Under the pieces are notes generated by a model. The model saw only the letters and a list, made by a program, of their open reading frames with translations, was not told the origin of the DNA and made no database searches. Source: Spirochaetota bacterium (GTDB taxonomy: Bacteria > Spirochaetota > UBA4802 > JAKQUI01). Taken from it: DNA of 64,000 bases. Shown here in pieces: positions 15,394 to 51,129 of this stretch. The stretch spans positions 59,146 to 123,145 of the forward strand of contig JAKQUI010000033.1 of assembly GCA_029562645.1 (NCBI GenBank), given 5' to 3'. The translations under genes and the position numbers were made by a program. Position 1 is the first letter of the stretch; each line of letters begins with the position of its first letter.

Positions 15394-15443
15394 CGAAATA
15401 TTGTGCAATTTTTTATTTCGTTCATTAATGTTTTTTTTCACAT

Positions 15444-16322: not shown

Positions 16323-16325
16323 GGA

Positions 16326-17597
16326 TCAACACTCGTAGAATTTAAAGTACCCGACACCCACACCTTTCGAGCCATATGATTGCCAATTTTCACCATCAAT
16401 ATCATCAAAGGCAAGTAACTGATCATACCCAGGATCACTTTCATCAATCACAAAAATCTTTCTATTTGTTTTTGCAACAATACGTTCCGGACCATAAAAT
16501 TTGCCAGGCCCAGATGGAGAACCCCCCGGTAAAACTGAACCATACCCCCGTACAAACCTTAGATTCTTATCAAGCTCAATAAATCTATAGCCATTCGCTC
16601 CAGCATTATTTGAAACAAACACCTTGTCATCCTTAACACAAATATCCCTAGCCCCGTTGATTTGAAAAGTATACGACCCAATCAGCGTCCCACTTCCACT
16701 TGGATTAAATTTATGAATCTTCTGCGTAGTTGCTATATATAAAATTCCATCGGTGTCAACCGCAAGGCCACGGATAAACTCCACGCCGTTGAGTGTAAAG
16801 GACTGGAGATTACCCCCAGCCGTATCTCTTCTATATACAGTACTAGGATCGTTAGCATTTTGAGTATAATAAACAAGGTTACTTTTTCGGTCAATCGCGA
16901 TCGAAGGATTCGTAAGCCCAGCAGTAACAATCGTATCGCACGTGGTACTATAAATATTATCAATCCTCACCATAAGTGGGGTCGTTGAATTAGAAATTAT
17001 ATAAATCCTCCCTTGGGCATCAAAGTCAATATCATATGGCTGCATTGCTCCCCCATAACCGATCTGCGAACCATTTCGATCAATCCAATTCTTCCCAGCC
17101 ATGTTTTCTATTTGAACGATACGATAATTTCTAAAATCCGGAATCACCAACTTCGTTTCATATGTCACCATCTGCATGGCGACTTCTTTCGTCTCCCCCG
17201 GCTCGAGATCCGCGGTGAGCGTCCCGCGATAGGAGAGCACCGCGCTCGGATCGCCGTCCTTCACGTAGCCGATCACCTGTATAAAACGCGACTTGCCCGC
17301 GGGGACAGTCACGGTGATATAGGTGGGCGGCGGCGAGTAGGAATTCTCGAAGGTCTTGATGTCCTCGGCGCTCACCACGATGGACACGCTCGCGATGTTC
17401 GACGGCGCCGCATACGCCTTCGGCATGATGAAATTCATGAACCGGTCGAACCGGGTCTTTGGAGCATTGAAGGCCTGGTCGAGGCCGAGGTTGATCACCA
17501 CGGTGGAATCGCCAAGCTCTCCGTCGGATTTGATGCAGCGAACGGATAGCATGCACAATGACGCCGCCAGAACGGTAATTGTGATTTTCTTTATCAT
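16326..17597 (-). CDS. secreted NHL-repeat (six-bladed beta-propeller) protein
   Basis: Start at MIKKITITVLAASLCMLSVRC (signal peptide). Repeated units such as ...LVYYTQNANDPSTVYRRD..., ...GILYIATTQKIHKFNPSG... and ...DKVFVSNNAGANGYRFIELD... fit NHL blades. The distal two-thirds is AT-rich and the 5' third is GC-rich. Confidence 0.5.
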   Translation of the reverse strand: MIKKITITVLAASLCMLSVRCIKSDGELGDSTVVINLGLDQAFNAPKTRFDRFMNFIMPKAYAAPSNIASVSIVVSAEDIKTFENSYSPPPTYITVTVPAGKSRFIQVIGYVKDGDPSAVLSYRGTLTADLEPGETKEVAMQMVTYETKLVIPDFRNYRIVQIENMAGKNWIDRNGSQIGYGGAMQPYDIDFDAQGRIYIISNSTTPLMVRIDNIYSTTCDTIVTAGLTNPSIAIDRKSNLVYYTQNANDPSTVYRRDTAGGNLQSFTLNGVEFIRGLAVDTDGILYIATTQKIHKFNPSGSGTLIGSYTFQINGARDICVKDDKVFVSNNAGANGYRFIELDKNLRFVRGYGSVLPGGSPSGPGKFYGPERIVAKTNRKIFVIDESDPGYDQLLAFDDIDGENWQSYGSKGVGVGYFKFYEC

Positions 17598-17719
17598 ACA
17601 GAAACTCCTCACGCACATACTCTTCCGCAAAAAACACACTGGGAGCGAGTTGGACGGTCTCTTTATATTCGGTACGTTTATAAAAGTACGATTTTCCGCG
17701 GAAATGTCAACAAAAATAT

Positions 17720-26525: not shown

Positions 26526-26669
26526 CTAGTCGACCAGCTCCCGTGTGATCTCGCGATTGCAGGACCGGCACCGCGCCGTCTCCTGCGGCATGCCGGCGTC
26601 CAGAAACACGTTGAGGGAAAATCCGCACGAACACCGGTAGGTGAAATTTTTCATCTTATATTCAGCCAT
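26526..26669 (-). CDS. small zinc-ribbon protein (47 aa)
   Basis: Minus-strand translation MAEYKMKNFTYRCSCGFSLNVFLDAGMPQETARCRSCNREITRELVD, giving CxC...CxxC. Not in the ORF track because it is under 60 aa. Directly upstream of, and co-oriented with, the barrel gene 24876..26501. Confidence 0.4.
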   Translation of the reverse strand: MAEYKMKNFTYRCSCGFSLNVFLDAGMPQETARCRSCNREITRELVD

Positions 26670-32613: not shown

Positions 32614-33309
32614 CTAACGAGCCTTCTGCCCGCCCGCAGGCTCCATCAATCGCCTGTTGACGAGGGGCGACCAGCCCGATTCCGCGAATTCCTTGGCGGC
32701 TGCGCGATACAACCCTACCATGATTTTCGGCCCGCGATCGATGTTCTTCAGGTCGCCAAGGTAGAGGAATGGGCTGTCGGGGAATTTGACCTTGCCCAGG
32801 TAATTGGCGATCGCCATGTCGACCTTTTCGGTATTCAGAATCAGTATGGAGAGGTCCACGACGATATCGCCCATGAAGACGAACTCATTTTTGCCGACCG
32901 AAACCCGGGAGGCGCCAATAACCTTTTCCCCGAAATAAGTGCAGTAAAACTGTTCCTCCCCCGGGCTCATGTCGGGCTTGCTGAAATCCTTCTGGTGCTT
33001 GAACGCCTGCTTCCTCGTATACGCGGCGACGGCGACATACTCCCCCGGTTCGCAATCGACAAGATAGGCTCGTCCGCGCGCCACGAAGTTCGCTGGGATG
33101 ACTCGCTTCGCGGTGAGATGCGTTTCACCCTTCTCGATTTTGGCAAAATACACCGCGGTCGGATAATCGGTAAATATGGCGATTGGCGCGCGCAGGGTGA
33201 TGGCAACGCCGAGAACGGAATTTCCCGCCTTCGATGGATACTTCAGGTGTACGGGCAGCGTGACGCATCCGGCGAGAACGAACACGAGTACCGGCAGAAA
33301 TCTTTTCAT
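32614..33309 (-). CDS. lipoprotein of unknown function
   Basis: 231 aa. Lipobox VFVLAGC. Confidence 0.45.
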   Translation of the reverse strand: MKRFLPVLVFVLAGCVTLPVHLKYPSKAGNSVLGVAITLRAPIAIFTDYPTAVYFAKIEKGETHLTAKRVIPANFVARGRAYLVDCEPGEYVAVAAYTRKQAFKHQKDFSKPDMSPGEEQFYCTYFGEKVIGASRVSVGKNEFVFMGDIVVDLSILILNTEKVDMAIANYLGKVKFPDSPFLYLGDLKNIDRGPKIMVGLYRAAAKEFAESGWSPLVNRRLMEPAGGQKAR

Positions 33310-33369
33310 TTCGTTGACACCTCCATGGTCAGGTCGATCTCGGTTATTCCGTGTCGTTGTTCAAAGTCG

Positions 33370-33957
33370 TTATTTCGCCCCGGGAACCGCGTTGACTGCG
33401 GTCGCGGTCATCAAACCGGGGAATGACTCCTTCATAATCCTGTCGGTGAGTTCCTTTTTCGCCGTGATTACCGGCTTAAGATCTGAAAACGCCCACTCGC
33501 CCACATAACAGACTTTGTCGGGTTGCAGCTGTATGCTGTCGTGTTCCAGCGTTTTAAAGGCGAGATATTTATTGCCCACATATGTCCCCGTCAGCTTTTT
33601 CAACTCACTGGCGTTTTTGACCAAATAGTACGTCTGGTAGGATGCTTTTTGACCCGACGCCTGACCCACCGTAAAACTGAACAGCTCATAGGTTCCCGCC
33701 GGCAGCTCAAACGCAAACGGCAGGCTCGTCTCGGGAGCCCAATTGCTTTTTATCGCCAGTTGATACGTTGAATCATTTTTTCGGTCGTATAAATCGATGC
33801 TAAACGAGTTCCCGAATCCGGGCATCTCGATCATAAGGCCGTAGATAATCGCTCGCCCGGGTTTCGGCGCGGATTGGTTTTTTGAAATCATGAAAAAACC
33901 GACACACGAGAAAAAGACCGGCACCGAGCACAGAAGGACTATGATACTTCGTTTCAT
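33370..33957 (-). CDS. lipoprotein of unknown function
   Basis: Start at MKRSIIVLLCSVPVFFSCVG (lipobox). The upstream extension of the ORF was discarded. Confidence 0.45.
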   Translation of the reverse strand: MKRSIIVLLCSVPVFFSCVGFFMISKNQSAPKPGRAIIYGLMIEMPGFGNSFSIDLYDRKNDSTYQLAIKSNWAPETSLPFAFELPAGTYELFSFTVGQASGQKASYQTYYLVKNASELKKLTGTYVGNKYLAFKTLEHDSIQLQPDKVCYVGEWAFSDLKPVITAKKELTDRIMKESFPGLMTATAVNAVPGAK

Positions 33958-34237
33958 GAAGCCTCCGAACGGTCGTTCATTGATAGCTACAATCAAAAAA
34001 AATCGAAAAACGCTCGCCGCCTGCGAGCTCCCCGCGGGACATCGTTCACGCCACATTCCTCTCGCAGAAAGCATACGAAGCGGCACCATGAAAGGTCAAG
34101 GCTTTATCTGCCGGCAAGGGAGATTGCGCGACTCGGACATGGCGGGCGCCTCATGCCGCCGGCGACCCCATAGTGCTTGACGGACTGATTGCGCGATAGT
34201 ATCGTCGCCCTATGAATTCACGCCCATCAGGCCGCGC

Positions 34238-36087: not shown

Positions 36088-36259
36088 GCCATGCCTTTCA
36101 GAGAACAAAAATTCAACAGGATGAAGATACGGCCTGATGAAATCAATTACAAGTAAAATGCGAATTTTCAGGGACGAAATCCTGAAAAATAAAGTATTTA
36201 TTTCAAAAACGGGTCTCGCGTTGCGTATTACTGAAAAAGACTTCCGTATGGAGATCGAC

Positions 36260-36718
36260 ATGCCAATCGACACGACCCTGTACGTCCATCAAACGACTTT
36301 GCAGCTTATTGAAGCCGCATGCGTCATGACGGGAATCAGACGCGGACAGCTCGTAGTTCTGTTGCTCGCGCGGGCCATCCTGAACCGCGGGAAGGCGCTC
36401 AAATCGGGCTCTGCGACGCGATATCAAACGCGCGACCGCAGGGAGATGTGGCGGACCATTCATGTTCGCATGTTAGCGGACGATGCCGATTACTTCAGGG
36501 ACGCTCGGTGTTTTTTCAATGAATCGGTTTCGTTGATTCTGGCGCAGGCGGCGAGAGAATACCTCCGTGAGATACTTCAACGATCGAGAAGCGGCGAGAA
36601 AGTGGATAACTATCCACTTAAAAATTACATCATCTGCAGGGAGGAACGGGACGGATTGATTTTCTGGCACATCTGCTGGGGATTCCCAGAAAAACCTGAA
36701 AAATACTTCCGTCTGTAG
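36260..36718 (+). CDS. hypothetical protein, paralog 1 of a two-member family in this window
   Basis: MPIDTTLYVHQTTLQLIEAACVMTGIRRGQ...REMWRTIHVRMLADDADYFRD...AQAAREYL...ERDGLIFWHICWGFPEKPEKYFRL. Diverged paralog of 48452..48910 with a conserved GLIFWxICWGFP terminus. Confidence 0.45.
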   Translation: MPIDTTLYVHQTTLQLIEAACVMTGIRRGQLVVLLLARAILNRGKALKSGSATRYQTRDRREMWRTIHVRMLADDADYFRDARCFFNESVSLILAQAAREYLREILQRSRSGEKVDNYPLKNYIICREERDGLIFWHICWGFPEKPEKYFRL

Positions 36719-37495: not shown

Positions 37496-37900
37496 CTAGA
37501 GACCGCGCAGGAAACCGGCAAGACCGGGGCTGATCCGCTTCGAATGGAGCGAATCGCGGTAGACGAATTTCACGTGCAGGCAGGCGGGCGACAGGTTGAA
37601 TTCCATGGGCTCGGGGAGCAGGGCGACGCCGCGGCAGAAGAACTGGATGGAGCCGTCATAAGCGCATTTGTACAGCGGGGCGCTCTCGGATGCGACGCCG
37701 TCGACGACGAGCCGCACCGTGACGGGATCGGTGACGGCGACGACGCGCGACCCGCGGCGTATCTCGATCCGGTCCGTTTCGGCGTGAAGCCGGCGCTTCA
37801 GCTCGCTGAATCCATGGGCGCCGCAGCCGGCCATGGACAGCACGAGCGCCAGCGTCATCATCAACAACCATGTCCGAAATATGCCCTGCATAGCGCACAC
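37496..37900 (-). CDS. small lipoprotein
   Basis: Lipobox LVLSMAGCG. Confidence 0.4.
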   Translation of the reverse strand: MCAMQGIFRTWLLMMTLALVLSMAGCGAHGFSELKRRLHAETDRIEIRRGSRVVAVTDPVTVRLVVDGVASESAPLYKCAYDGSIQFFCRGVALLPEPMEFNLSPACLHVKFVYRDSLHSKRISPGLAGFLRGL

Positions 37901-38996: not shown

Positions 38997-39106
38997 TTGA
39001 CGGTACCGATAACTATCGGTATATTATGACCGAACAGTCGGTCAATATAAAAACTATCCCCGGTGGGGATTTTTAAAAGAATCTTTAATGACCGAATAGT
39101 CGGTCA
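38997..39106 (+). promoter_or_regulatory. sigma70-type promoter with two TetR operator palindromes and a 5'-UTR hairpin
   Basis: TTGACG (38997-39002), a 17-bp spacer and TATATT (39020-39025). Operator 1 TGACCGA-acag-TCGGTCA at 39027-39044. Operator 2 TGACCGA-atag-TCGGTCA at 39089-39106. An extra palindrome ACCGATA-ac-TATCGGT sits inside the spacer. The hairpin ATCCCC-ggt-GGGGAT plus TTTTT at 39056-39078 lies between the operators. Confidence 0.55.
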
Positions 39107-39119
39107 AACAGGAAAAGAG

Positions 39120-39740
39120 ATGTCTCCAAAGATTGTGGATGTTGATGAGAAAAAGAAGCAGATAACCGACGCCGCCATACGGGTCCTCGCCAGGAAGGGC
39201 CTCAAGGAAACGAAGATGGAGGACGTCGCCGAAGCAGCGGGTATCGGGAAAGGCACCCTGTATGAATACTTCAAGTCAAAAGATGAACTCTTCTTGGTCG
39301 CCTATCGTCATATTATGGAAGAATTCGAATGCCAAACCGATTTGAAGCTGCCGGAAAATGTAACCACGATAGACACCCTGAAAGCGATCATTTCGATGAT
39401 GACCTCGATGCACACTTCGGACTTCCCGCTGGATCACTTCCAGGTGCTCACCGAGTTCTGGCTCGAGGAGGTCAAATCGGCAAACCAGGGGAAAAAGCGG
39501 CAATTCGACATGCTCGCCACTTACCGCGAGTATATCGACCTCGTGAAAGCGGTGTTCGAACAGGGGATTCAAAAAGGGGAAATCCGCGACATCAACCCCG
39601 AACACGCCGCCACCATTCTCATGATGATCTTCGACGGCCTCATGCTCCTCTGGATGCTCGACAAGAACTCCTTCGACTTCAAGGGCACCGTGGACACGTT
39701 CGGTGGCATATTCATAAAAGGAATTCAAAAGCAGGGGTAG
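39120..39740 (+). CDS. TetR/AcrR-family transcriptional regulator
   Basis: Start at MSPKIVDVDEKKKQITDAAIRVLARKGLKETKMEDVAEAAGIGKGTLYEYFKSKDELF, the TetR helix-turn-helix signature. Confidence 0.8.
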   Translation: MSPKIVDVDEKKKQITDAAIRVLARKGLKETKMEDVAEAAGIGKGTLYEYFKSKDELFLVAYRHIMEEFECQTDLKLPENVTTIDTLKAIISMMTSMHTSDFPLDHFQVLTEFWLEEVKSANQGKKRQFDMLATYREYIDLVKAVFEQGIQKGEIRDINPEHAATILMMIFDGLMLLWMLDKNSFDFKGTVDTFGGIFIKGIQKQG

Positions 39741-39777
39741 GATATGGCGATCAAAACGGACGCGCCATCATGCGGCG

Positions 39778-39884
39778 CAACCTCACCCCCTACCCCTCTC
39801 CCATAGGAGAGGGGAGTGGAAAAAGCTACTTCCCACGAAGCCCCCTCCTATGGGAGAGGGCGCGCCGGAGGCGGGGTGAGGTTG
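39778..39884. repeat. MITE-like composite palindromic element (copy C of the CCCCTC family)
   Basis: A 12-bp terminal inverted repeat, CAACCTCACCCC at 39778-39789 and GGGGTGAGGTTG at 39873-39884. It encloses the perfect hairpin CCCCTCTCC-ata-GGAGAGGGG (39794-39814) and an imperfect second hairpin (about 39843-39860). Spurious ORFs read through it as ...SPLLWERG. Confidence 0.5.
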
Positions 39885-39927
39885 AACGAGCGTATGTATG
39901 AATAAATCAAGGATAAGGAGAAAACCC

Positions 39928-40683
39928 ATGAAGTCATTAATGATCATTCTCGCGCTGATCACGGCGCTCGCGTCAACGGCACTGCCGTCATACGCCCTCA
40001 CGGGCAAGGAGATCATCAGAAAGACCGAGGACGCCATGCGCGGCACCTCCGTCGTGGGCACCTACCTCATCACCGTGAAGACGAAGCTGTGGACGCGGAC
40101 GATGAAGTTGAAGGCATACGACCAGCGCGCCGGGAAGAAGTCCTTCAACGAGATCTACGAACCGAAAAAGGACGCGGGCAACCGGTTCCTCATGATCAAC
40201 AAGAACATGTGGCACTATGTCCCCAAGCTCCAGCAGACCATCAAGATTTCGCCGTCGATGATGCTCCAGTCGTGGATGGGGTCGGACTTCACCAACGACG
40301 ACATCGTGAAGGAATCCAGCATCGAGGAGGACTACACCCACACGGTCACCGGGACCGCGACGGTGGACGGGCACCCCTGCCATGTCATCCTGCTCACGCC
40401 GAAGCCCGACGCCGCCGTCGTGTGGGGCAAGATAATCTACTCCGTGCGACAAAGCGACTACCTCCCCGTGCGCGAGGAATTCTACAACGAGCATAACGTC
40501 CTCAAGCGGGTGATGACCTTCGGCCAGTTCAAGAAGATGGACGATCGCGTGATCCCCACCCTCTGGAAGATGCAAACCGTGAGCAAGCCGGAGGCGCACA
40601 CGATCCTCGAGATCGCGAGCATCCGGTTTAACACCGCGATCCCGTCACGCACCTTCACCATGCAGAACCTGACGAGGAAGTAG
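39928..40683 (+). CDS. outer-membrane lipoprotein-sorting protein (LolA-like fold), exported
   Basis: Start at MKSLMIILALITALASTALPSYA (signal peptide) with an AAGGAG RBS 8 nt upstream. About 230-aa mature protein of the type that accompanies FtsX/MacB-like ABC exporters. Confidence 0.55.
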   Translation: MKSLMIILALITALASTALPSYALTGKEIIRKTEDAMRGTSVVGTYLITVKTKLWTRTMKLKAYDQRAGKKSFNEIYEPKKDAGNRFLMINKNMWHYVPKLQQTIKISPSMMLQSWMGSDFTNDDIVKESSIEEDYTHTVTGTATVDGHPCHVILLTPKPDAAVVWGKIIYSVRQSDYLPVREEFYNEHNVLKRVMTFGQFKKMDDRVIPTLWKMQTVSKPEAHTILEIASIRFNTAIPSRTFTMQNLTRK

Positions 40684-40685
40684 CC

Positions 40686-41933
40686 ATGAACCGAGAAGCG
40701 ATCGCACAGCTCGCCTGGCGAAACGTGTGGCGCAACAAGCGCCGGACGATCCTGACGCTCGCCACCATCGTCGTCGGCTGCGGCATGATCATCCTCAACA
40801 ACGCCCTGGCCAAGGGCGGGCATGACGGGATGATCAACGACGCGGCGATCACGAGCGCCGGGCACATCCAGGTGCACCGCGCCGGCTACTGGGCGAGCCG
40901 CACCATCGACTACGCGTTCCAGGTGCCGGACGGCCTCACCGCCGCGCTCGGGCGAGACCGTCGGATCGCCGCGCACACCGAGCGCATCCATGCCGCCGGG
41001 CTCCTCGCCTTCGGCGCGAACACCTCCGGCGGGCAGATCCAGGGCGTGGATCCCGCGCGCGAGCCGGCGGTGACCAACCTGCACACGTGGGTCCTTCCCG
41101 GCGGGCGCTATCTCACCGCGGAGGATTCGACCCACGCGATCGTCGGGGAGACGCTCGCGAAGAACCTCGGCGCGAAGGTCGGCGACGTCGTCTCGATCAT
41201 CTCGCAGGGGCTCGACGGGTCCATCGCCGCCGAGAAGCTCACGGTGGTGGGCGTCTTCCGCTCGGGCAATCCCGAGTACGACCAGACGCTCCTCGTCATG
41301 CCGATCGAGCAGGCGCGCGCGACCTTCTCGATGGAGCGCTACATCCACGCCATCGTCGTCCGTCTCGCCGACATAAAGCACGATGCGGCGGTCATCGATT
41401 CGCTGCGTGCGTCCCTGCCGGAGACGGAGCGGTCCTCGATCGAGGTGCTGGGATGGGACACGCTGATGCCCGAGCTCGTCCAGTTCATCGCGCTCGACGA
41501 CATCAGCGCCTACATCTTCGATTTCATTCTGTTCCTGGTGGTCGCCTTCGGCATCCTGAATACCGTACAGATGGCGGTCTTCGAGCGCACGCGCGAGTTC
41601 GGGGTGATGCTGGCGGTGGGCACGCGGCCGGGCCAGGTGGTCCACATGGTGCTCATCGAATCCGCGATCATATCGACGTTAGGCGTCATTGCCGGCGGCA
41701 TCGCGGGGTTCCTGGCGAGCCTGTACTTCAAACTGCGGCCGCTGGATTTTTCGGACTACTCGAACGAGATGGCGACGATCGGCGTGAGCATGACAAAACT
41801 CCCGGCCGATGCGACGGCGGCGAACATCGCCGTGACCGCCGTCATCACCCTGGCGCTGACGATCGTCTTCGCCTATTTCCCGGCGCGTCGCGCGTCGAAA
41901 CTCAAGCCGGTCGAAGCGATCCGGCAACTGTAG
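40686..41933 (+). CDS. ABC transporter permease, FtsX/MacB-like
   Basis: 415 aa. N-terminal TM, a large periplasmic domain, then three C-terminal TMs containing the FtsX region ...LVVAFGILNTVQMAVFERTREFGVMLAVG.... Confidence 0.8.
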   Translation: MNREAIAQLAWRNVWRNKRRTILTLATIVVGCGMIILNNALAKGGHDGMINDAAITSAGHIQVHRAGYWASRTIDYAFQVPDGLTAALGRDRRIAAHTERIHAAGLLAFGANTSGGQIQGVDPAREPAVTNLHTWVLPGGRYLTAEDSTHAIVGETLAKNLGAKVGDVVSIISQGLDGSIAAEKLTVVGVFRSGNPEYDQTLLVMPIEQARATFSMERYIHAIVVRLADIKHDAAVIDSLRASLPETERSSIEVLGWDTLMPELVQFIALDDISAYIFDFILFLVVAFGILNTVQMAVFERTREFGVMLAVGTRPGQVVHMVLIESAIISTLGVIAGGIAGFLASLYFKLRPLDFSDYSNEMATIGVSMTKLPADATAANIAVTAVITLALTIVFAYFPARRASKLKPVEAIRQL

Positions 41934-41946
41934 CGGGAGGATACAC

Positions 41947-43182
41947 ATGCAGACCATATTCGCCATGGGCTGGCGCAACATCTGGCGACACCGCCGCCGC
42001 TCCCTGGTGGTGATCTCGTCGATCGCCCTGGGCATTTTCGCCATGATATTGTCGATGGGCATCATGAACGGCATGAACAACCAGGCGATCGAGAACACCA
42101 TCCGGACCGCGCTGGGACACATCGCCATCCACCGGAAGGGATTCCACGAGGACATGAAGATCGCGCACAACTTCAAATCGACCGATCGCATCATGCGGTC
42201 GATCGCGGCCGACCGGCGCATCGCCGCCGCCGCGCCTCGGGTGAAGCTCCCCGGCATGGTCCGCTCGAGCGAGACCTCGCAGGGCGTCCTCATCGTGGGC
42301 ATTGATCCCGAGAAAGAAATGAAGATCTCGAACCTGTACCAGTACACGTCGAAGGAAAACGGCAGCCGCTTCCTCGCCTCGCCGGACGAGAACGCGGCGC
42401 TCATCTCGCAGCAGACGGCCGATCGCCTCAAGCTCGTCGTGGGCGACAAGCTGGTGCTGATGCTCCAGGACCGCAACAACGAGATCGTGGGCGTGGGCAT
42501 GACCGTCGCCGGGACCTTCCAGACGCCCGTGGAGAGCTTCGACAAGCTGGTGGTCTTCACGGGGATCGGAAAGCTGCAGGAGATCACGGGGCTCGGGGAG
42601 AACATCTCCGAGATCTCCATCGCGATCACGGACCCCGCGGCGATCACGGACATCAAGCGGCGCCTCATCGGCGCGATCGGCGACGATTCGCTCGAGGTGC
42701 TCACCTGGATGGACATGGCGCCCTACCTGGTGAGCGCGGTGAAGTTCTTCGACACGATCATGTACATCACCTTCGTCATCATCTTCCTGGTGGTCGTCTT
42801 CTCAGTGGCCAACACCCTGGTGATGGCGATCATGGAGCGATTCCACGAGATCGGCGTCATGAAGTCGATCGGCACGCGCCCGTCGTGGATCGCAACGATG
42901 ATCGTCTTCGAGGCGGTGAACCTGGGCCTCGTGGGGCTCGTCGCCGGTGTCGCCGCGGGAACGCTCTCGGTCGCGGCGCTCTCGATCGGCGGGATCAACC
43001 TGGGGCTTTTCATGGAGTCGCTGCGCGCCTGGGGGACCGGCAGCGTCATCTTCCCGGTCATCAAGGGCATGGACATCGTCGTGGCGGCCCTGATCGTCCT
43101 CGCGACTACGGTCCTCGCGGCGGTCTACCCGGCCGTCAAGGCCGCGCGCATCAAGCCGCTCGAGGCGCTTCATTTCGTATAA
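41947..43182 (+). CDS. ABC transporter permease, FtsX/MacB-like (second copy)
   Basis: 411 aa. Same architecture. ...VVFSVANTLVMAIMERFHEIGVMKSIGTRPS.... Confidence 0.8.
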   Translation: MQTIFAMGWRNIWRHRRRSLVVISSIALGIFAMILSMGIMNGMNNQAIENTIRTALGHIAIHRKGFHEDMKIAHNFKSTDRIMRSIAADRRIAAAAPRVKLPGMVRSSETSQGVLIVGIDPEKEMKISNLYQYTSKENGSRFLASPDENAALISQQTADRLKLVVGDKLVLMLQDRNNEIVGVGMTVAGTFQTPVESFDKLVVFTGIGKLQEITGLGENISEISIAITDPAAITDIKRRLIGAIGDDSLEVLTWMDMAPYLVSAVKFFDTIMYITFVIIFLVVVFSVANTLVMAIMERFHEIGVMKSIGTRPSWIATMIVFEAVNLGLVGLVAGVAAGTLSVAALSIGGINLGLFMESLRAWGTGSVIFPVIKGMDIVVAALIVLATTVLAAVYPAVKAARIKPLEALHFV

Positions 43183-43210
43183 CGCAATAGACCATCATGT
43201 GGAGAAAACG

Positions 43211-43930
43211 ATGAATATCATAGAACTGCAATCGATCACCAAGACCTACGACACCAACGGGCTCACCGTCCCGGCGGTGCGCGGCGTCGATCTCGTCGTG
43301 GAAAAGGGCGAGTTCTCCGCCCTCGCGGGGCCCTCGGGCTCCGGCAAGACGACGCTCCTGAACCTCATCGGCGGCCTGGACAATCCGTCGGGCGGAACGG
43401 TGTCGGTGGGCGGCGAGAACATCACCGGCTATTCGCCGCGGCAGCTCTCGGACCTGCGCCTGCGGAAGATCGGCTTCATCTTCCAGGCGTACAACCTCAT
43501 CCCGGTGCTCAGCGCGATCGAGAACGTCGAGTACATCCTGCTTTTACAGGGCATGGAAAAGACCGAGCGCCGCCGCCGCTCGGCCGCGATGCTGGCCGAG
43601 GTGGGCCTGGAGGGACTGACGGACCGGCGGCCGCACCAGCTCTCCGGCGGACAGCAGCAGCGCGTGGCCGTCGCGCGCGCCATCGTCTCCGAGCCCGACA
43701 TCGTGCTGGCCGACGAGCCCACGGCCAACCTGGACCAGAAGACGGGCGCGGCGCTCCTGGACCTGATGCACGAGCTCAATCGTACAAAAGGAATCACCTT
43801 CCTCTTCTCGACCCACGACGGCATGGTGATGGAGCGCGCGGAGCGCCTCATCAGCCTGCGCGACGGCGTCGTCGAGCACGACCGCGTGAAGCGGCGGGCA
43901 AAACCTCGATCCGCGAAACGGAAGCGGTGA
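43211..43930 (+). CDS. ABC transporter ATP-binding protein (LolD/MacB-ATPase-like)
   Basis: ATG start at 43211, downstream of the GTG used by the ORF track, with a GGAGA RBS. Walker A GPSGSGKTT, signature LSGGQQQRVAVARA, Walker B ...IVLADEPT. Confidence 0.9.
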   Translation: MNIIELQSITKTYDTNGLTVPAVRGVDLVVEKGEFSALAGPSGSGKTTLLNLIGGLDNPSGGTVSVGGENITGYSPRQLSDLRLRKIGFIFQAYNLIPVLSAIENVEYILLLQGMEKTERRRRSAAMLAEVGLEGLTDRRPHQLSGGQQQRVAVARAIVSEPDIVLADEPTANLDQKTGAALLDLMHELNRTKGITFLFSTHDGMVMERAERLISLRDGVVEHDRVKRRAKPRSAKRKR

Positions 43931-43940
43931 GCGATCCTGC

Positions 43941-45350
43941 ATGAGTCTCTTGCGGTACATCAGTGCGCTGATTCTGCTCGCCGTCCTCGCGACGCCCGCG
44001 TTCGTGGGCGCACAGACGAACGGCGGTTCGAAGGCGGACATGCCGGATGGCGCGGCATCGCCGGATCGGCCCGACATAACCGAAACAAAAAAGGATGCGA
44101 ATGACGAGGAGGCGAAAGTGTTCTCGTTCAAGGCGCAGTTCAAGGAGCTGTTCACCTACACGGACACCATCGAGCGCTCCTTCGCGGTAAACACGTACAT
44201 CGACGAGTCGACCGGTGAGGTCGGCTACAGCGTGAAAGAGAAGGCGCGCAACAAGTCGCTCTTTGCGAATCTCATGCGGCTGCGCCTTTCGCCCGAGATC
44301 AAGGGCGGGGAGCGCTTTCTTCTGCACGTCGATCTCGACAACGAGATCATCAGTTCGGATTACATGAAGAGCCGCGAGTTCGACCAGTACTGGCGTCCGT
44401 CAGACTACAACGATTTCGCAGATCTCTCCTGCGAGCCGGTCTACGACGACATGAGCTACTACCGGATGAAGCTCCATCGGGCGTACGCCAAGATCCTTCT
44501 GGACAAGTTCACCGCGACCATCGGGCGGCAGCAGATCCGCTTCGGCAGCGGCCGCCTGTGGAATCCGCTGGACATCCTCAATCCGATCTCGCCCACGTAC
44601 GTCGAGGGGCCCGAGGACCAGAAGGGGACCGACGCGCTGCGTCTCGAGTACTATCCCTTTGACAAGACGGAGCTCGGGCTCATCATCGACCCGAAGCGCA
44701 TGGACAACGACGAGGACATCGGGAAGCTCAACAGCGACAACACCAACGTGCTGGCCCGCTTCAAGACGTCGTTGTACGAAACAGAAATCGCGCTCATGGG
44801 CGGGCGCGTCTCGCATCGCCTGGTGGGCGGCGCCGACGCATCGACCCACCTGCTCGACGGGCTCCTCCGCGGATCGGTGCTTTACGCCAAGCCCGATCCC
44901 GGGCGCGAGTACGCCCAGGCGAGCGCCGGCTACGAGTATAACTTCTCCTTCGGCCTGTACTTCCTGATCGAATACTTCTACAACGAGAACGGGATGAACT
45001 ACAACTCGAACCTCGCCAACGCCTACGAACGGTTCGTGATGGAGGGCATGAGCGAAGCGATCTACCGCAAGCTCGCCAATCAGCTGCTCACCTGGAACCA
45101 GCACTACGGCGGCATCGCGCTCGGGTACGACATCACCCCGCTCGTGCGCGGGGAGCTCTTCTCGATATACGACTTCCAAGGAAAGGGCCTCTATGCAGCG
45201 CCGTCGCTCAAGTACAACATCGTGCAGAACGCGGACCTCGCGATCGGGGTCATGAAGGCATACCGGATGGGGATTTCGCGCACGCCGACGGACTTCGAGA
45301 GCCTCATCAATCACCCGTATTTTTTCTTCTCGCTCGTCGCGTATTTCTGA
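43941..45350 (+). CDS. secreted beta-barrel-like protein (alginate-export/DUF1302-like), the putative outer-membrane component of the cluster
   Basis: 469 aa. Signal peptide MSLLRYISALILLAVLATPAFVGA. ...TIGRQQIRFGSGRLWNPLDILNP.... Terminal ...FFFSLVAYF. Confidence 0.45.
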   Translation: MSLLRYISALILLAVLATPAFVGAQTNGGSKADMPDGAASPDRPDITETKKDANDEEAKVFSFKAQFKELFTYTDTIERSFAVNTYIDESTGEVGYSVKEKARNKSLFANLMRLRLSPEIKGGERFLLHVDLDNEIISSDYMKSREFDQYWRPSDYNDFADLSCEPVYDDMSYYRMKLHRAYAKILLDKFTATIGRQQIRFGSGRLWNPLDILNPISPTYVEGPEDQKGTDALRLEYYPFDKTELGLIIDPKRMDNDEDIGKLNSDNTNVLARFKTSLYETEIALMGGRVSHRLVGGADASTHLLDGLLRGSVLYAKPDPGREYAQASAGYEYNFSFGLYFLIEYFYNENGMNYNSNLANAYERFVMEGMSEAIYRKLANQLLTWNQHYGGIALGYDITPLVRGELFSIYDFQGKGLYAAPSLKYNIVQNADLAIGVMKAYRMGISRTPTDFESLINHPYFFFSLVAYF

Positions 45351-46157: not shown

Positions 46158-47117
46158 ATGCTCCAAAAAATAATTAACGCCGTAAAAATCTACTTCTCGA
46201 TGCTCAACATGACGCCGGGCAGCGCACCGCCGATCTTTCGGAAACCGACGGTTGATGTCCCTCAGGCGAAGCCGACGCCGTTCTGGGTGCATGTGCTGCT
46301 GTTTGCGATCACGTTTGTGACGACGACGGCGTCGGGCGTGGTCATGTGCGCGCAATCCGACGATTTCATCGCCGAGATTCCGCGGGTGGGGATCCCCTAT
46401 GCGCTGGCCATCATGACGATCCTGCTCGCGCATGAGCTGGGCCATTACTATGCCGCAAAACGATTCGACGTTGCGACGACGCGGCCGTTCTTCATCCCCT
46501 TCATTCCGCCGGTGGGCACCATGGGCGCCGTGATCCGGATAAAATCGAAGATTCACGACAAGCGAACGCTCCTGTACATCGGCGCAGCGGGACCGATGAT
46601 CAGCTTTACCCTCAGCCTTGTCGCGACTGTCGTTGGATTGCTCCTTTCCGAGGTAAAGGCCTTTCCCGCCGCGCCTCCCGGCGGCGAGCTCATCGAGCTG
46701 GGCGATTCGATCATTCTTTTAGGCCTCACGCGACTTATTCACGGCGAGATTCCCCCAGGCTTTGGCATGATCATATCGCCGCTCACCTGGGCGGGCTGGA
46801 TCGGTTTCCTGGTAACCAGCCTCAATCTGATGCCCATCGGCCAGCTCGATGGCAGCCATATTCTCTATGCGCTCATCGGGCGGCGGCAGGTCTATGCGGG
46901 CTGGCTCGCATTCGCCGGTCTTGTGGCCCTTGCGGTCGTGTGGCCGGGGTGGATCGTGTGGATCGCGCTTGCGCTCATCGTGCTCATGATCGGCCATCCC
47001 CCGATTGAAGACGGAGAACCGATAACTATCGGCGAACGGATAGCCGGATGGTTCTGCATCGTCATTCTTATCATCACCTTTATCCCCCAGCCGGTTAACA
47101 TACTTCCGATTAAGTAA
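46158..47117 (+). CDS. M50 / site-2-protease family zinc metalloprotease
   Basis: 319 aa, polytopic. HELGHYYAAK (HExxH) and the downstream ...LMPIGQLDGSHIL (LDG motif). Confidence 0.75.
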   Translation: MLQKIINAVKIYFSMLNMTPGSAPPIFRKPTVDVPQAKPTPFWVHVLLFAITFVTTTASGVVMCAQSDDFIAEIPRVGIPYALAIMTILLAHELGHYYAAKRFDVATTRPFFIPFIPPVGTMGAVIRIKSKIHDKRTLLYIGAAGPMISFTLSLVATVVGLLLSEVKAFPAAPPGGELIELGDSIILLGLTRLIHGEIPPGFGMIISPLTWAGWIGFLVTSLNLMPIGQLDGSHILYALIGRRQVYAGWLAFAGLVALAVVWPGWIVWIALALIVLMIGHPPIEDGEPITIGERIAGWFCIVILIITFIPQPVNILPIK

Positions 47118-47284
47118 TTCCAGCCTCTTTCTTTTTCAACCGTCCCGAAGGTTTGGAATATTTTTTCGCATTAAGTATTGACCGTCCGTCCAAATTTTTA
47201 AGCCTGCCATCAACACGAATGAGAACGGCGTTCATGCGCCGCAACATCATTCGGATATCACTGGATACGTCAGAGGAGTTTCAC

Positions 47285-48295
47285 ATGTCACTTCGCACCG
47301 GGCTTTTCAGGCTCATTTCGATGTTCGTCATCGCCGCAAGCGCATTCATGTTCTCGTGCGACGAGCCGCAGGATTCGAATAACGTGTACGTCGCAGGCTG
47401 GTATAACAAGGGCGACATCTATTATCCCTGCTACTGGAAAAACGGCACGCGCGTCGATCTCGGATCGAGATCATCGACCTATTCTTCCATCGCGGTATCG
47501 GGCAGCGACATCTTCGTCGCCGGAAACATGAACTTCCAGCCGACCGTCTGGAAGAACACGGCATCGAACAAGACCACGCTTGAGACCTCCTTCTCCATGG
47601 CGATGGGGATCGCCCTTTCGGGCAATGACGTCTTCGTAAGCGGTAACTACTTCCTGCCCTCCGACATAATGATCGCCTGCTACTGGGTGAATGGTTCGCG
47701 CGTGGAACTCGAGAACGTCGAATCGCTGGCGCACAATATGATGATTCAGAATGGCGACATCTACATCGCCGGCGCCGTGGGACCGATCGGGTCAAGCGTC
47801 CCCTGCTACTGGGTGAACGGCTCGCGCGTCGAGCTCGCAAACGACACTCCGACCGCCTTCGCCCGCTCGGTGTTCTCGACCGGCAACGACGTATACGCCG
47901 CCGGCGGCGCCGACGACGCGAACGGCTCGCGCCGCGCGGTCATCTGGAAGAACGGCGTAAAGACCGTCCTGCACAATGGCGACTCCGAGGCCTTCTCGGT
48001 GTTCGTAAACGGAAACGACGTATACGTGGCCGGACATGCGTGGATCAACGGTATTCGGACCGCCTGCTATTGGAAGAACGGCGTGCGCACCAACCTGGGC
48101 GACGGCTCCAAGCACTCCGACGCCTACAGCGTGTATTTCTTTGGCGGGAATGTGTATGTGAGCGGCGACTACATCGACAACGGAAAGTACGCCTGCGTAT
48201 GGCGCAACGACAAGAACAACCGCTACAAGCTTTCCGACGGCGGCGTGACCTCGCACGATGCGGCCGGCACCTCGATATTCGTGACCGCGAAGTAA
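47285..48295 (+). CDS. repeat lipoprotein with about 40-aa CYW(K/V)NG repeats, probably a beta-propeller
   Basis: Start at MSLRTGLFRLISMFVIAASAFMFSC (lipobox). Units CYWKNGTRVDL / CYWVNGSRVEL / CYWVNGSRVEL / VIWKNGVKTVL / CYWKNGVRTNL / CVWRNDKNNRYKL, each followed by ...IAVSGSDIFVAG-type strands. Confidence 0.5.
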   Translation: MSLRTGLFRLISMFVIAASAFMFSCDEPQDSNNVYVAGWYNKGDIYYPCYWKNGTRVDLGSRSSTYSSIAVSGSDIFVAGNMNFQPTVWKNTASNKTTLETSFSMAMGIALSGNDVFVSGNYFLPSDIMIACYWVNGSRVELENVESLAHNMMIQNGDIYIAGAVGPIGSSVPCYWVNGSRVELANDTPTAFARSVFSTGNDVYAAGGADDANGSRRAVIWKNGVKTVLHNGDSEAFSVFVNGNDVYVAGHAWINGIRTACYWKNGVRTNLGDGSKHSDAYSVYFFGGNVYVSGDYIDNGKYACVWRNDKNNRYKLSDGGVTSHDAAGTSIFVTAK

Positions 48296-48451
48296 TCATT
48301 ACTCCGGTCCCGCAACGACGGGTCGCCTCCGTGCGGCCCGTTTTGTTTTCCGCCGTGCCGTCCCGCAATTGAACTCCCGCATGATGGACCGCGTTTCAAT
48401 TTTTTCCGATCGGCTTCGTAATACGTACAGATACGACCGGAGGATATCCAC

Positions 48452-48910
48452 ATGGCAATCGACACCACGCTCAACGTTCACGAGAGCACCCTGCGCCGCA
48501 TCGACAGGATCACATCAATAACGGGCCGCGCGCGCAATCGGGTCATCGTCGATTTGCTTACACGGGTGATGTCGGATCGGGGCAAGCAATTCGCGACGGG
48601 CTGCACGGTGCGCTATCAACGGCGCGACAACAAGGAGAAATGGCGAACGGTCCATGTTCGATTGAGCGAGGATGAGGTTGATTACTTTCGGGATCTGCGG
48701 GGGGTGTATAAGCGGTCGGAGTCGCTGCTACTGGCGGAGGCCGCCCGTGAATATCTGAGCGATATTATCAGGGAGGCGCTGCGCGGTGTGAAAAGCGATA
48801 ACCATCCGTTCCAGAACTACGTTCTGTCACGGCATGAGGCGGAAGGATTGATTTTCTGGACCATCTGCTGGGGATTCCCCCCAACCCCCCAAAACCACTT
48901 CAAGCTCTGA
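48452..48910 (+). CDS. hypothetical protein, paralog 2 of the 36260..36718 family
   Basis: MAIDTTLNVHESTLRRIDRITSITGRARN...KEKWRTVHVRLSEDEVDYFRD...AEAAREYL...EAEGLIFWTICWGFPPTPQNHFKL. Confidence 0.45.
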   Translation: MAIDTTLNVHESTLRRIDRITSITGRARNRVIVDLLTRVMSDRGKQFATGCTVRYQRRDNKEKWRTVHVRLSEDEVDYFRDLRGVYKRSESLLLAEAAREYLSDIIREALRGVKSDNHPFQNYVLSRHEAEGLIFWTICWGFPPTPQNHFKL

Positions 48911-48931: not shown

Positions 48932-49420
48932 TCACTTCTTGCTCAGCTCGCCGTACAGCATCTTCGCGAGCCCCATATTCGCGGTCTTCGACATCTCCAG
49001 CGCATAGTTGTCGTACAGCATATCCTCGAAGATCTCCTCGGCGAAACCGCCGTGGAGCATCTCCCCCTTCTGGACGGTCTTGCGCATCTCCTTGAGCATC
49101 TTGGACACGAACAACGACTCCATCTCCACGCAGGCGTCCATGAGGCGCGTGTCCACGGGCTTGCGGTCCAGCGGGATCGCGTTATGCGGCGCACGGAATG
49201 TGTGGTTCGCCTCGGGCATGCGCATCCCCGCCGACTGCGACGCGCGTTTCCCGGGACCCGCAGCAAGACCCTCCACGTCGAGCACCTGGTGCATCACGCT
49301 CGCGAAATCGGCGTGTTTTCCGGATGTATCGACGCGCTTCTTCACGCCCTGCGCCGTCCCGCTCTCGAGAGCCGTGCGCCGCGCGTCCATGATCATCGAC
49401 AGGTCGTTTTGGGTAATCAT
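48932..49420 (-). CDS. flgJ: flagellar rod-binding protein (FlgJ N-terminal domain only)
   Basis: Start at MITQNDLSMIMDARRT. ...LESLFVSKMLKEMRKT...GGFAEEIFEDMLYDNYALEMSK... is the rod-binding motif. No muramidase domain. Confidence 0.6.
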   Translation of the reverse strand: MITQNDLSMIMDARRTALESGTAQGVKKRVDTSGKHADFASVMHQVLDVEGLAAGPGKRASQSAGMRMPEANHTFRAPHNAIPLDRKPVDTRLMDACVEMESLFVSKMLKEMRKTVQKGEMLHGGFAEEIFEDMLYDNYALEMSKTANMGLAKMLYGELSKK

Positions 49421-49430
49421 GCTCGCCTCA

Positions 49431-50444
49431 CTACCGTATGATAAGCTCCGCGTGGAGCGCCTTTGCCTCGTCCATGGCCTTGAGTATCGCGATAATATCA
49501 CGGGTGGACGCCCCGATGGAGCCCAGCGCGTCCACCAGGTCTTTCACCGTGGCGACATCCTTGATATGCGCAACCGACGTGGTGCCCGCACTCCCCTTGT
49601 CCTTCTTCTCGATGCGGACGGTCATCCCCTCCTTGCTCACAACCACCTCGGAGATCCGCACGGCGCCGCCCATCACGATGGTGCCGGAACGCTCGTCCAC
49701 CACGACCCGGGCGCGCGCGCTGGCCGGAACCTCGATCGCCTCGATCTTCGCGATGAACTCGTCCACGCTCGTTTCCTTGGGGACCACCAGTTTGATTTTT
49801 CCGCCTTTGGCGATCGCCGCCTTCGATTCGGGAAACGCGTCATTGAGCGCCTTCACGATGCGGCTGGCCATGGTAAAGTCCCAGTTCTCGAGCACCACCT
49901 GTATGGCGCTGTCGGCGCCGTACTCGGGCAGGCTTTCGCGCTCCACAATCCCGCCCCCGGAGATGCTCCCCACGGTCTTCACGGTCTTCGTCCGTCCGCC
50001 CGGAGCCCCCGCGCCGTCCATGGAGAGCGTCCCCTGCGCCGCCACGTACACCCGATCATCCGCGCCGCGCAGCGGGGACTGCACCAGGATCCCGCCCTCG
50101 AGCGACTTCGCATCTCCGATGGACGATACCGTGATGTCCACGCGGTCGCCCACGCGCGCGAAGGCCGGCAGCATCGCCGTGACCATCACGGCGGCGGTGT
50201 TCTTCGAGCCGATGTCGTCGCCCTCGATGCCCATGTTCTTCAGGAGATTGCGCAGCGACGTCTTCGTGAGCGCGGATCGCGTATCGCCGGTCCCCGGCAG
50301 GCCCACGACGATCCCGAAGCCCATGAGCTGGTTTTCCTTGAGGCCGTCCACATACGAGATGTCGCGAAGCTTCACCATCACCTCGGCGCGCGCGGCGAGC
50401 GCGAGCATCATCATGCACACAATGAATGCCGGTATCCGTTTCAT
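49431..50444 (-). CDS. flgI: flagellar P-ring protein
   Basis: 337 aa. Signal peptide. ...GFGIVVGLPGTGD... and ...GGILVQSPLRGADDRVYVAAQGTLS.... Confidence 0.9.
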   Translation of the reverse strand: MKRIPAFIVCMMMLALAARAEVMVKLRDISYVDGLKENQLMGFGIVVGLPGTGDTRSALTKTSLRNLLKNMGIEGDDIGSKNTAAVMVTAMLPAFARVGDRVDITVSSIGDAKSLEGGILVQSPLRGADDRVYVAAQGTLSMDGAGAPGGRTKTVKTVGSISGGGIVERESLPEYGADSAIQVVLENWDFTMASRIVKALNDAFPESKAAIAKGGKIKLVVPKETSVDEFIAKIEAIEVPASARARVVVDERSGTIVMGGAVRISEVVVSKEGMTVRIEKKDKGSAGTTSVAHIKDVATVKDLVDALGSIGASTRDIIAILKAMDEAKALHAELIIR

Positions 50445-50448
50445 GCCG

Positions 50449-51129
50449 TTAGCGGGTGATCTCCTGGAGCATTTTTTTCACGTAGTCGAGGATGATCCTC
50501 TGCTTCTCCTCCTCGGTAAGCTTGAAGGCGGCCGATTCGCCCTCCTTGAGCGGCTCGCGCTTCAGGTCCACCGGCGCGCCGGACTTGCCGCCCACGATGT
50601 CCATGCGGAAGTCGGCGATGTCGTCGGCGAGGACGGTCTTCCCCTTCACGAGCGCCGGATCGATGATGCCGCGGACGCGAAAGCTGCTGCGCACGCCATG
50701 GAAGGTGTAGTCGCGCCGGCCGTCCACCGTGAACTTGCCGTCGTCGCGCCGCCCCGTTACGCGCGCGGCGATCGACACCAGCATGTTGTTCTTTCCGGAG
50801 AAGTCCGTCTTGCCGGTGGACGCGCTCTTGCGGTCGGTGGACACCTTCGGTAAAAACGGGGTGATCCCCTGATCGGGGTTGGCGGTGATATTAAAGGTAT
50901 TGTTGTCCGCAACGGTGACGGAGAATTTCATCTGCGAGACGTCCTCGATCTTCACGATGAGGATGTCGCCCACCTTGAGGCTCGCGGCGGAGGAATAGAC
51001 ATTGCGGTCGGTCCAGAGCGATTTCGGGAACACGGCGGCCGCCGACAGGATGAACACCAGCACGAATGACACGATGAGAAACCCGACGATGGCGCCGGTC
51101 GCGTCATCGGCATATGCGTTCCGCCTCAC
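50449..51129 (-). CDS. flgH: flagellar L-ring protein
   Basis: 226 aa. ...VGDILIVKIEDVSQ..., ...NMLVSIAARVT...DGKFTVDGRRDYTFHGVRSSFRVRGII.... No cysteine anywhere in the protein. The N-terminus is a hydrophobic anchor rather than a lipobox. Confidence 0.8.
   Translation of the reverse strand: MRRNAYADDATGAIVGFLIVSFVLVFILSAAAVFPKSLWTDRNVYSSAASLKVGDILIVKIEDVSQMKFSVTVADNNTFNITANPDQGITPFLPKVSTDRKSASTGKTDFSGKNNMLVSIAARVTGRRDDGKFTVDGRRDYTFHGVRSSFRVRGIIDPALVKGKTVLADDIADFRMDIVGGKSGAPVDLKREPLKEGESAAFKLTEEEKQRIILDYVKKMLQEITR

Follow-up and report, generated by a model that had tools for sequence, protein, structure and literature searches.

In this study, a stretch of 64,000 nucleotides from a Spirochaetota bacterium (assembly GCA_029562645.1, contig JAKQUI010000033.1, positions 59,146 to 123,145 of the forward strand; the whole stretch is called the window here, and positions are counted from its first letter) was investigated with respect to two plus-strand genes, copy 1 and copy 2, which a first-pass annotation had presented as diverged paralogs of an unrecognised protein family. 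We observed that the two genes arose by an old duplication within an unannotated, multi-copy family which has so far turned up only in Spirochaetota and whose members, judging from profile comparison and structure models, are very probably single-chain ribbon-helix-helix (RHH) DNA-binding proteins. The family genes share a promoter-like element ahead of the start codon as well as a short motif held at synonymous sites within the coding sequence, and this motif recurs as a dispersed palindrome across the loci examined. The evidence points to an undescribed regulatory network, and the reading that we favour, with a little better than even confidence, is that the proteins are monomeric single-chain RHH regulators which bind the palindrome.

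Both open reading frames (ORFs) were recovered where the annotation had placed them, each translating to 152 amino acids (aa). The full-length collinearity claimed for the two proteins was borne out, with 76 of 152 identities in BLASTP (50%; 70% positives, 0 gaps, E=2e-59), and the similarity withstood the proposed shuffling control, giving a Smith-Waterman score of 422 against 29.2 +/- 5.1 over 1000 shuffles (z=76). The quoted blocks IDTTL, WRT(I/V)HVR, DYFRD, AAREYL and GLIFW-x-ICWGFP are all present in both proteins. Comparatively, the two genes retain 60% identity at the DNA level, with third positions near saturation, and because third codon positions agree at only 45% against 68% at the first two positions, the duplication appears to be an old one with both copies under purifying selection. 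A six-frame search with the family profile detected exactly two copies in the window, both matching end to end at E=1e-51 to 7e-55, the next match being at E=0.039. The 152-aa starts are preceded by Shine-Dalgarno sequences (GGAG at 36250-36253 for copy 1 and GGAGG at 48440-48444 for copy 2), and the relatives begin at the same Met. Copy 1 also has an in-frame upstream ATG at 36137 (36137-36259), which would give an ORF of 193 aa and is used in at least one public gene call (P0001); the homologs and the Shine-Dalgarno sequence support the 152-aa start, as far as sequence can tell. Several family representatives of 177-214 aa were also obtained in the profile search, and since homologs and Shine-Dalgarno sequences back the shorter start, public annotations of the family probably contain over-extended N-termini.

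The family could not be assigned, as had been stated: neither window protein has a significant match in Pfam or NCBIfam, and in the profile search that had been recommended no curated library (Pfam, NCBIfam, PADLOC, PHROGs) assigned it, PADLOC giving no match and PHROGs a single weak Arc-like match in one relative, while Rfam disclosed no known RNA leader. An exhaustive HMMER search of 1.84 billion representative proteins, with a family cut-off of E ≤ 1e-3, recovered 563 representative clusters, 370 of them at E ≤ 1e-10, and nearly all of the 563 representatives are about 140-160 aa long and aligned over their full length; this overturned the impression of a tiny family given by a word-index search (4 clusters). 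The suggested genome-wide count likewise revealed a multi-copy family, with 119 confirmed matches among 185,579 species-representative genomes, scanned with a peptide pattern drawn from a consensus-like subset of the family. This subset was needed, as patterns from the window clade gave no match in the scan and the broad family alignment yielded no usable pattern. The best 79 loci of the scan (916 kb, each selected for holding a family gene) all belong to Spirochaetota, namely 18 metagenome-assembled or single-amplified genomes (MAGs or SAGs), and form the locus set used below. As a lower bound, up to 10 loci (11 genes) occur in one genome, one 4.8-Mb contig carries six scattered copies, and the window lineage has at least three paralogs, the third being P0162 / L086. 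All genome matches bearing a taxon and all named homologs are from Spirochaetota, every named homolog being a 'hypothetical protein'; no member was found in viral contigs, and no description of the motif or of such RHH families in spirochaetes was found in the published literature.

The conservation table and family profile, compiled from 125 relatives, show a mean identity of 34%, with T6, H68 and W64 near-invariant and the strand residues as the best-conserved part of the protein. Outside the RHH core, a cluster of aromatic and polar residues is conserved (Y55, Q56, D116, N117, Y118, Y123, W136 and W140). Both window proteins carry the operational signature TT-x-N ... V-R-YQ ... W-x-x-x-H ... 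D-x-RK-x-x-K-x-S-V-S ... DNY-x-x-x-NY ... W-x-x-x-WG-x-P, spread over about 150 aa. The C-terminal tail had been described as rich in Trp and Cys; the Trp part stands, with W136, W140, G141 and P143 conserved, and the Cys part does not, since position 139 is mostly Tyr among the relatives. In any case the family deserves a Pfam or NCBIfam model.

The surmise of a small DNA-binding fold at the N-terminus agrees with our data. The family profile matches CopG (1b01) over residues 1-43 at a marginal E=0.0017, and the structure model that was made as a check (AlphaFold2 with 125 sequences; an input of five sequences gave a predicted local distance difference test score of 48.5) agrees with an N-terminal RHH unit. 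In the same model the middle block WRTxHVR...DYFRD...AAREYL forms a second RHH unit, and the β-α-α units pair their strands into an antiparallel ribbon within one polypeptide; the two units would thus pack as an intramolecular pseudo-dimer, as in TraY and AvtR. Family positions 4, 6 and 8 align with R4, T6 and T8 of CopG, which are the base-contacting residues in the CopG-DNA structure. At the level of sequence the kinship is faint: the curated models RHH_1, RHH_5 and CopG_antitoxin do not match the window proteins even at E ≤ 10, RHH_1 or RHH_5 give weak matches in six of the 125 relatives, and the RHH antitoxins MazE and VapB match the family profile weakly. As to an internal duplication, the two units of the protein align in register in hhalign with a probability of only 8.7%. 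By its modelled fold the family is a member of the RHH superfamily which matches no curated model, and strand-residue conservation together with motif statistics suggests that it binds DNA sequence-specifically through the β-ribbon.

The best structural match is TraY of the F plasmid (PDB 9f0x chain E), which likewise carries both RHH units in one chain. About 98 of the 152 family residues align to it, though with about 10% identity and no match to Pfam TraY, and TraY lacks the linker of about 45 residues and the C-terminal β-hairpin module of the family. Moreover, TraY is plasmid-borne and works with a HUH relaxase at oriT, whereas the genes of the window stand alone on the chromosome, in several copies and in conserved synteny; no relaxase, oriT or transfer genes accompany them, their neighbours being housekeeping genes. 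AvtR of Acidianus filamentous virus 6 (PDB 4hv0) is also a single-chain double RHH protein, but it comes from a virus of archaea, measures about 100 aa, shares 6% identity and lacks the hairpin; nor does it belong to a multi-copy chromosomal family or have an intragenic site with constrained synonymous positions. The family resembles TraY and AvtR in architecture but is a member of neither family, since the two defining features, sequence homology and genomic context, were tested and neither was found. Among the other close systems, repressors of the CopG / Arc / MetJ type (PF01402, PF07878; single-chain Arc, PDB 1u9p) are proteins of about 45-50 aa with obligate dimerisation, unlike the fused window proteins, which have no Pfam RHH match. 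DndE of DNA phosphorothioation (PDB 7x4e, 4lrv), among the top structural matches, is encoded in dndABCDE clusters, while no dnd genes lie near either window copy and PADLOC gave no match. DUF6364 (PF19891) is the Pfam family most often matched by the relatives (8 of 125 at E ≤ 0.01, best E=6.6e-6), but it matches neither window protein nor the remaining 117 relatives, so that membership does not hold. The linker and C-terminal hairpin (DNY...NY...W-x-x-x-WG-x-P) are specific to the family and have no solved counterpart. Fused double RHH proteins have been known from a few isolated cases (TraY, AvtR, DndE); here they form a large family with many paralogs per genome within an uncultured spirochaete branch.

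A DNA motif, ACCGATAACTATC, lies over codons 115-118 of the family genes and is held at synonymous sites. In the 916 kb of loci the 10-mer GATAACTATC occurs 136 times against about 1.7 expected, and 48 of these occurrences sit inside family genes at this fixed offset. Among the 67 genes that encode D-N-Y, Asp is GAT in 67/67 (background 79%), Tyr is TAT in 67/67 (background 75%) and Asn is AAC in 65/67 (background 30%, p=1e-31), with ACC as the preceding codon in 46/67. The nearby control pair N122-Y123 is free of such codon bias, synonymous constraint across the whole gene peaks exactly at the D-N-Y codons, and genes encoding D-N-N read ACCGATAACAATCGG with both arms kept. Since the peptide pattern that selected the loci was taken from a different part of the protein, this constraint is no artefact of ascertainment. 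The exact 10-mer is also found in L001, L003 and the third paralog of the window lineage, L086. Additionally, a second and weaker region of codon bias covers copy 1 residues 82-91 (36503-36532), with R83 as AGG in 49/78 and K84 as AAG in 52/76 against a background of 31%, V90 as GTT in 44/58 and S89 never AGY; it could reflect a DNA- or RNA-level constraint or an expression-related bias.

The other 88 copies of the 10-mer share the consensus tACC-GATAACTATC-GGt and are about 3-fold enriched in intergenic DNA, mostly 5-130 nt from a gene start. Palindrome density per kb amounts to 1.32 in family coding sequences, 0.89 upstream of family genes, 0.28 in other intergenic DNA, 0.063 in other coding sequences and 0.002 at random, an over-representation of about 30-fold to several-hundred-fold, and regions upstream of family genes exceed other intergenic regions 4.25-fold (p=2e-5). 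Because the non-family copies have no -35 partner and no preferred orientation to the gene, the dispersed palindrome is operator-like and not promoter-like. The site-bearing genes are diverse, including those of an M48 peptidase, Hsp20, SRAP, a radical-SAM protein, a Na:Ala symporter, RACo and Dus. Two exact 14-mers CCGATAACTATCGG occur in the window, one of them filling the 17-nt spacer of a sigma70-type promoter upstream of the operon 39063-45350 (tetR / lolA-like / two macB-ftsX / ABC-ATPase / unknown 469-aa gene). We considered a sigma28/FliA promoter, as ACCGATAA resembles GCCGATAA, and rejected it in view of the missing TAAA -35 and the random orientation to genes. A TetR operator in general was rejected as well, there being one TetR homolog in the 79 loci with no site nearby, besides the diversity of the site-bearing genes; the operon's own TetR might still repress through the single site at 39006. 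At L034:9277-9307 a pair of palindromes (GATAGTTATCGGTATAGAACCGATAACTATCGG) faces opposite ways at a distance of 21 bp; being equal to two turns of the helix, this distance would lend itself to cooperative binding.

Upstream of the family genes we identified a bipartite consensus, AAAAWWTTTT followed after about 17 nt by (A)TTCGTATA, the latter, the core, preceding the ATG by about 36-41 nt. The matrix built from it was trained on family sites, so that its sensitivity is circular and its specificity is not: at ≥25 bits it finds 46 sites upstream of family genes and 0 elsewhere in 1.83 Mb, and at ≥20 bits 64 against 5. The element of copy 1 scores 11.4 bits by this position weight matrix, the third best on the plus strand of the window. 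Within the window clade, which is GC-rich, the element is less strong, yet a [T/G]CGTA core at -36/-37 is present in 5/5 members (w1, w2, L001, L003 and L086). The -10-like portion of the element, TCGTATAnC, departs from the sigma70 consensus, in contrast to the canonical TTGACG-N17-TATATT promoter of the same window. By its geometry the element is promoter-like, family-specific and not of the sigma70 type, and from this geometry and the non-sigma70 -10-like part we infer that it may depend on an alternative sigma factor or an activator. Together, a core located some 36-40 nt ahead of the ATG and the intragenic (A)CCGATAAC(T/A)ATC at codons 115-118 serve as an operational signature in cis, present in copy 1 with the exact 10-mer and in copy 2 with a motif of one mismatch. 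A promoter type used almost only by one family and a palindrome inside nearly every family gene both make the family directly testable.

Matches of the element outside the family are few. Only two HUH/Y1 (IS200/RAYT-like) genes exist in the 79 loci (L040:669-1109 on the plus strand and L044:498-1097 on the minus strand), and the two highest-scoring matches outside the family (about 24 bits) stand before them, correctly spaced from the start codons, which suggests that they are co-regulated with the RHH family. An orthologous gene for a 154-aa lipoprotein directly downstream of one paralog (L022:6461 and L008:6469, plus strand) has an element match of its own at 16-19 bits. The strongest non-family matches in the window, at 26642 and 6393 (14.6 bits each), look like chance: one runs antisense across the beginning of a small zinc-ribbon ORF, and a large ORF encloses the other.

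In the mechanism that we propose, each paralog would be driven from its family-specific, non-sigma70-like element, and the two-stranded β-ribbon of the protein would be inserted into the major groove, with the near-invariant residues T6 and N8 on its first strand and W64 and H68 on its second. As T6, H68 and W64 are near-invariant at a mean identity of 34%, we expect one shared DNA target instead of paralog-specific operators. The putative target is the near-palindrome ACCGATA-AC-TATCGGT of 14-16 bp, with ACCGATAACTATCGGT as the candidate motif; it is the best candidate because its size and imperfect symmetry are as in the AvtR type of site (PMC5569661), because it is linked to the family both within and upstream of the genes, and because it behaves like an operator. 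That the palindrome is the site of the family proteins is nevertheless a tentative identification, to which we give somewhat less than even weight. The proteins might act as repressors or global regulators which auto- or cross-regulate their own genes, and in the window one site could block the sigma70 promoter of the tetR-efflux operon.

Several observations weigh against this reading. The connection of protein to motif, and the regulatory outcome with it, is one that we infer from the fold and from motif statistics, and the co-occurrence of palindrome and family at the genome level was built in by the ascertainment of the loci. Some 50% of the palindromes outside the family fall within ORFs, and the promoter-spacer position of the one window copy is not a general rule across the loci. 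Copy 2 fits poorly, since the spacing of tract and core in its upstream element is atypical (only 6.1 bits in an alternative register) and its intragenic motif is degenerate. The residues predicted to make contacts do not covary with the upstream core bases (mean z 0.28 against 0.59 for non-contact residues), so that the co-evolution signal which frequently backs the pairing of a transcription factor with its site is absent, and if the C-terminal hairpin covered the β-ribbon, DNA binding would be altered. If the proteins do bind the palindrome, they would represent a kind of global regulator or nucleoid-type system not seen before, which targets itself through sites inside its own genes, and hundreds of 'hypothetical proteins' would gain a name and a function. 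We could find no precedent for the combination of family expansion, C-terminal module, private promoter type and operator-like palindrome within the ORF.

An unlikely alternative is that the proteins are autoregulators which bind the upstream core (A)TTCGTATA, the palindrome being the site of a different global factor with the family genes as prominent targets. The core stands at a fixed position before nearly all members, including five of the window clade, and with its 9 bp and asymmetry it fits a single asymmetric RHH2 module; RHH regulators, AvtR among them, moreover typically repress their own promoters (PMC5569661). Against this, the fixed spacing of about 17 nt to the A/T tract and the fixed distance to the ATG amount to promoter geometry, the same element drives two unrelated HUH/Y1 genes, the missing covariation tells here as well, and a palindrome held at synonymous sites in the family genes would be left unexplained.

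It is improbable, in our estimation, that the RHH scaffold serves something other than sequence-specific DNA binding, for example protein-protein contacts or the binding of a ligand through the aromatic C-terminal module, in which case the intragenic motif would have a separate role, for instance as another factor's site, in gene conversion between paralogs or as a methylation target. The aromatic and polar cluster outside the RHH core has no solved counterpart, the alignment to TraY leaves part of the protein aside (about 98/152 residues), and DndE and WYL1, among the top matches, are not classical repressors; but the nearest relatives by structure are all nucleic-acid binders, conservation is highest in the strand residues, and an operator-like palindrome is enriched upstream of the family genes.

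We attach a low probability to the view that the proteins are accessory DNA-binding partners of HUH (Y1, IS200/RAYT-like) nucleases, marking dispersed palindromes, which could form hairpins like those of repetitive extragenic palindromes (REPs), for DNA processing and not for transcription control, much as TraY works with the TraI relaxase. TraY is itself the accessory factor of a HUH relaxase, the best non-family element matches belong to the only pair of Y1/HUH genes that the 79 loci contain, and the palindrome, dispersed at about one per 10 kb, could fold back on itself with a stem of 6 bp and a loop of 4 nt. These are only two genes, however, a very small sample; no HUH gene occurs in the window or adjoins family genes, the paralogs and their neighbourhoods are stably syntenic, and the palindrome is short, lacks a larger conserved context and lies half in ORFs, unlike REPs. 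Slimmer again is the chance that family, palindrome and co-regulated HUH/Y1 genes make up one chromosome-wide DNA-transaction system and not a transcription network, a chromosomal counterpart to the TraY-TraI relaxosome or to REP-RAYT systems in which at least 10 paralogs per genome would mark hundreds of palindromes, including one per own ORF, for a domesticated HUH nuclease. That the proteins are orphan antitoxins of type II toxin-antitoxin modules or phage- or plasmid-derived repressors, as the weak matches to MazE, VapB and one Arc-like PHROG might hint, is hardly credible given the absence of a conserved downstream partner or co-transcribed adjacent toxin (both window copies are followed by convergent genes), the differing housekeeping neighbours, the fused instead of dimerising RHH units, the absence from viral contigs and PADLOC, and the lack of flanking repeats.

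In the window, copy 1 is surrounded by genes for an S-adenosylmethionine methyltransferase, recX, rpsI and rplM, and copy 2 by those for an M50 peptidase, an unknown 380-aa protein (47153-48295) and flgJ/flgI/flgH. The first-pass description of each copy as a plus-strand gene between minus-strand genes applies to copy 1 only, the upstream neighbour of copy 2 being on the plus strand. In the set of 79 loci, 57 of 78 upstream neighbours point away from the family gene, the median gap being 158 bp. The check for a conserved co-localised neighbour turned out negative: neighbours differ between paralogs and none is common across them. Individual paralogs hold the same slot in 5-9 genomes, such as Dus <> gene > amino-acid permease, MFS_2 sugar symporter <> gene > GH127 > GH2 and A24 prepilin peptidase <> gene. 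Because these slots are fixed across genomes, each paralog is a stable, vertically inherited, stand-alone chromosomal transcription unit, and not mobile or part of a toxin-antitoxin pair. A mobile element or a recent duplication was also rejected on the grounds that no flanking direct or inverted repeats were found around the window copies, that the DNA identity is as low as given above, that the paralogs are syntenic and that viral contigs hold none. The features located in the window are given in Table 1.

Table 1. Positions of the two family genes, their predicted parts and the associated DNA elements in the 64-kb window.
Feature	Position	Strand	Remarks
Copy 1 promoter-like bipartite element	36194..36231	+	T/A-rich tract; core GCGTATTA (36223-36230) at -37 from ATG
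Copy 1	36260..36718	+	152-aa protein, predicted single-chain double-RHH
Copy 1 RHH unit 1, predicted	residues ~2-42, nt 36263-36385	+	structure model, profile match to CopG
Copy 1 RHH unit 2, predicted	residues ~64-110, nt 36449-36589	+	structure model
Copy 1 intragenic motif	36602..36616	+	GTGGATAACTATCCA; V115-D116-N117-Y118-P119; exact 10-mer GATAACTATC at 36605-36614
Copy 1 C-terminal β-hairpin, predicted	residues 123-140, nt 36626-36679	+	
Sigma70-type promoter	38997..39025	+	TTGACG 38997-39002, 17-nt spacer, TATATT 39020-39025; spacer filled by CCGATAACTATCGG at 39006-39019
Second exact CCGATAACTATCGG	47019..47032	.	3' end of M50-peptidase ORF, ~120 nt before the unknown 380-aa gene preceding copy 2
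Copy 2 promoter-like element	48398..48423	+	AATTTTTT (48398-48405); core TCGTAATA (48416-48423) at -36
Copy 2	48452..48910	+	152-aa paralog, NCBI HNV47329.1, 'hypothetical protein [Spirochaetota bacterium]'
Copy 2 degenerate intragenic motif	48797..48806	+	GATAACCATC (D-N-H), one mismatch

A few further observations concern the neighbourhood of these genes. Spirochaetes have periplasmic flagella, and most are thought to be without L and P rings. The window encodes FlgH (L-ring), FlgI (P-ring) and a FlgJ-like rod-binding protein at 48932-51129 on the minus strand, and two of the three paralogs of the window lineage face flagellar clusters in convergent orientation (in the window flgJ/I/H, and at L086:5667-10244 fliW-csrA-flagellin-flgK-flgN). 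ORFs of 469, 380, 231, 239 and 134 aa (43941-45350, 47153-48295, 32614-34089 and 37496-37900) are without a significant Pfam match, and the 469-aa ORF is conserved as a 'hypothetical protein' in related MAGs. Finally, the stretch 12886-17639 has a low GC content (42-48% against about 60%) and encodes an FG-GAP/CARDB surface protein, a GT28-like glycosyltransferase and a beta-propeller protein, and is probably an acquired envelope or surface island.
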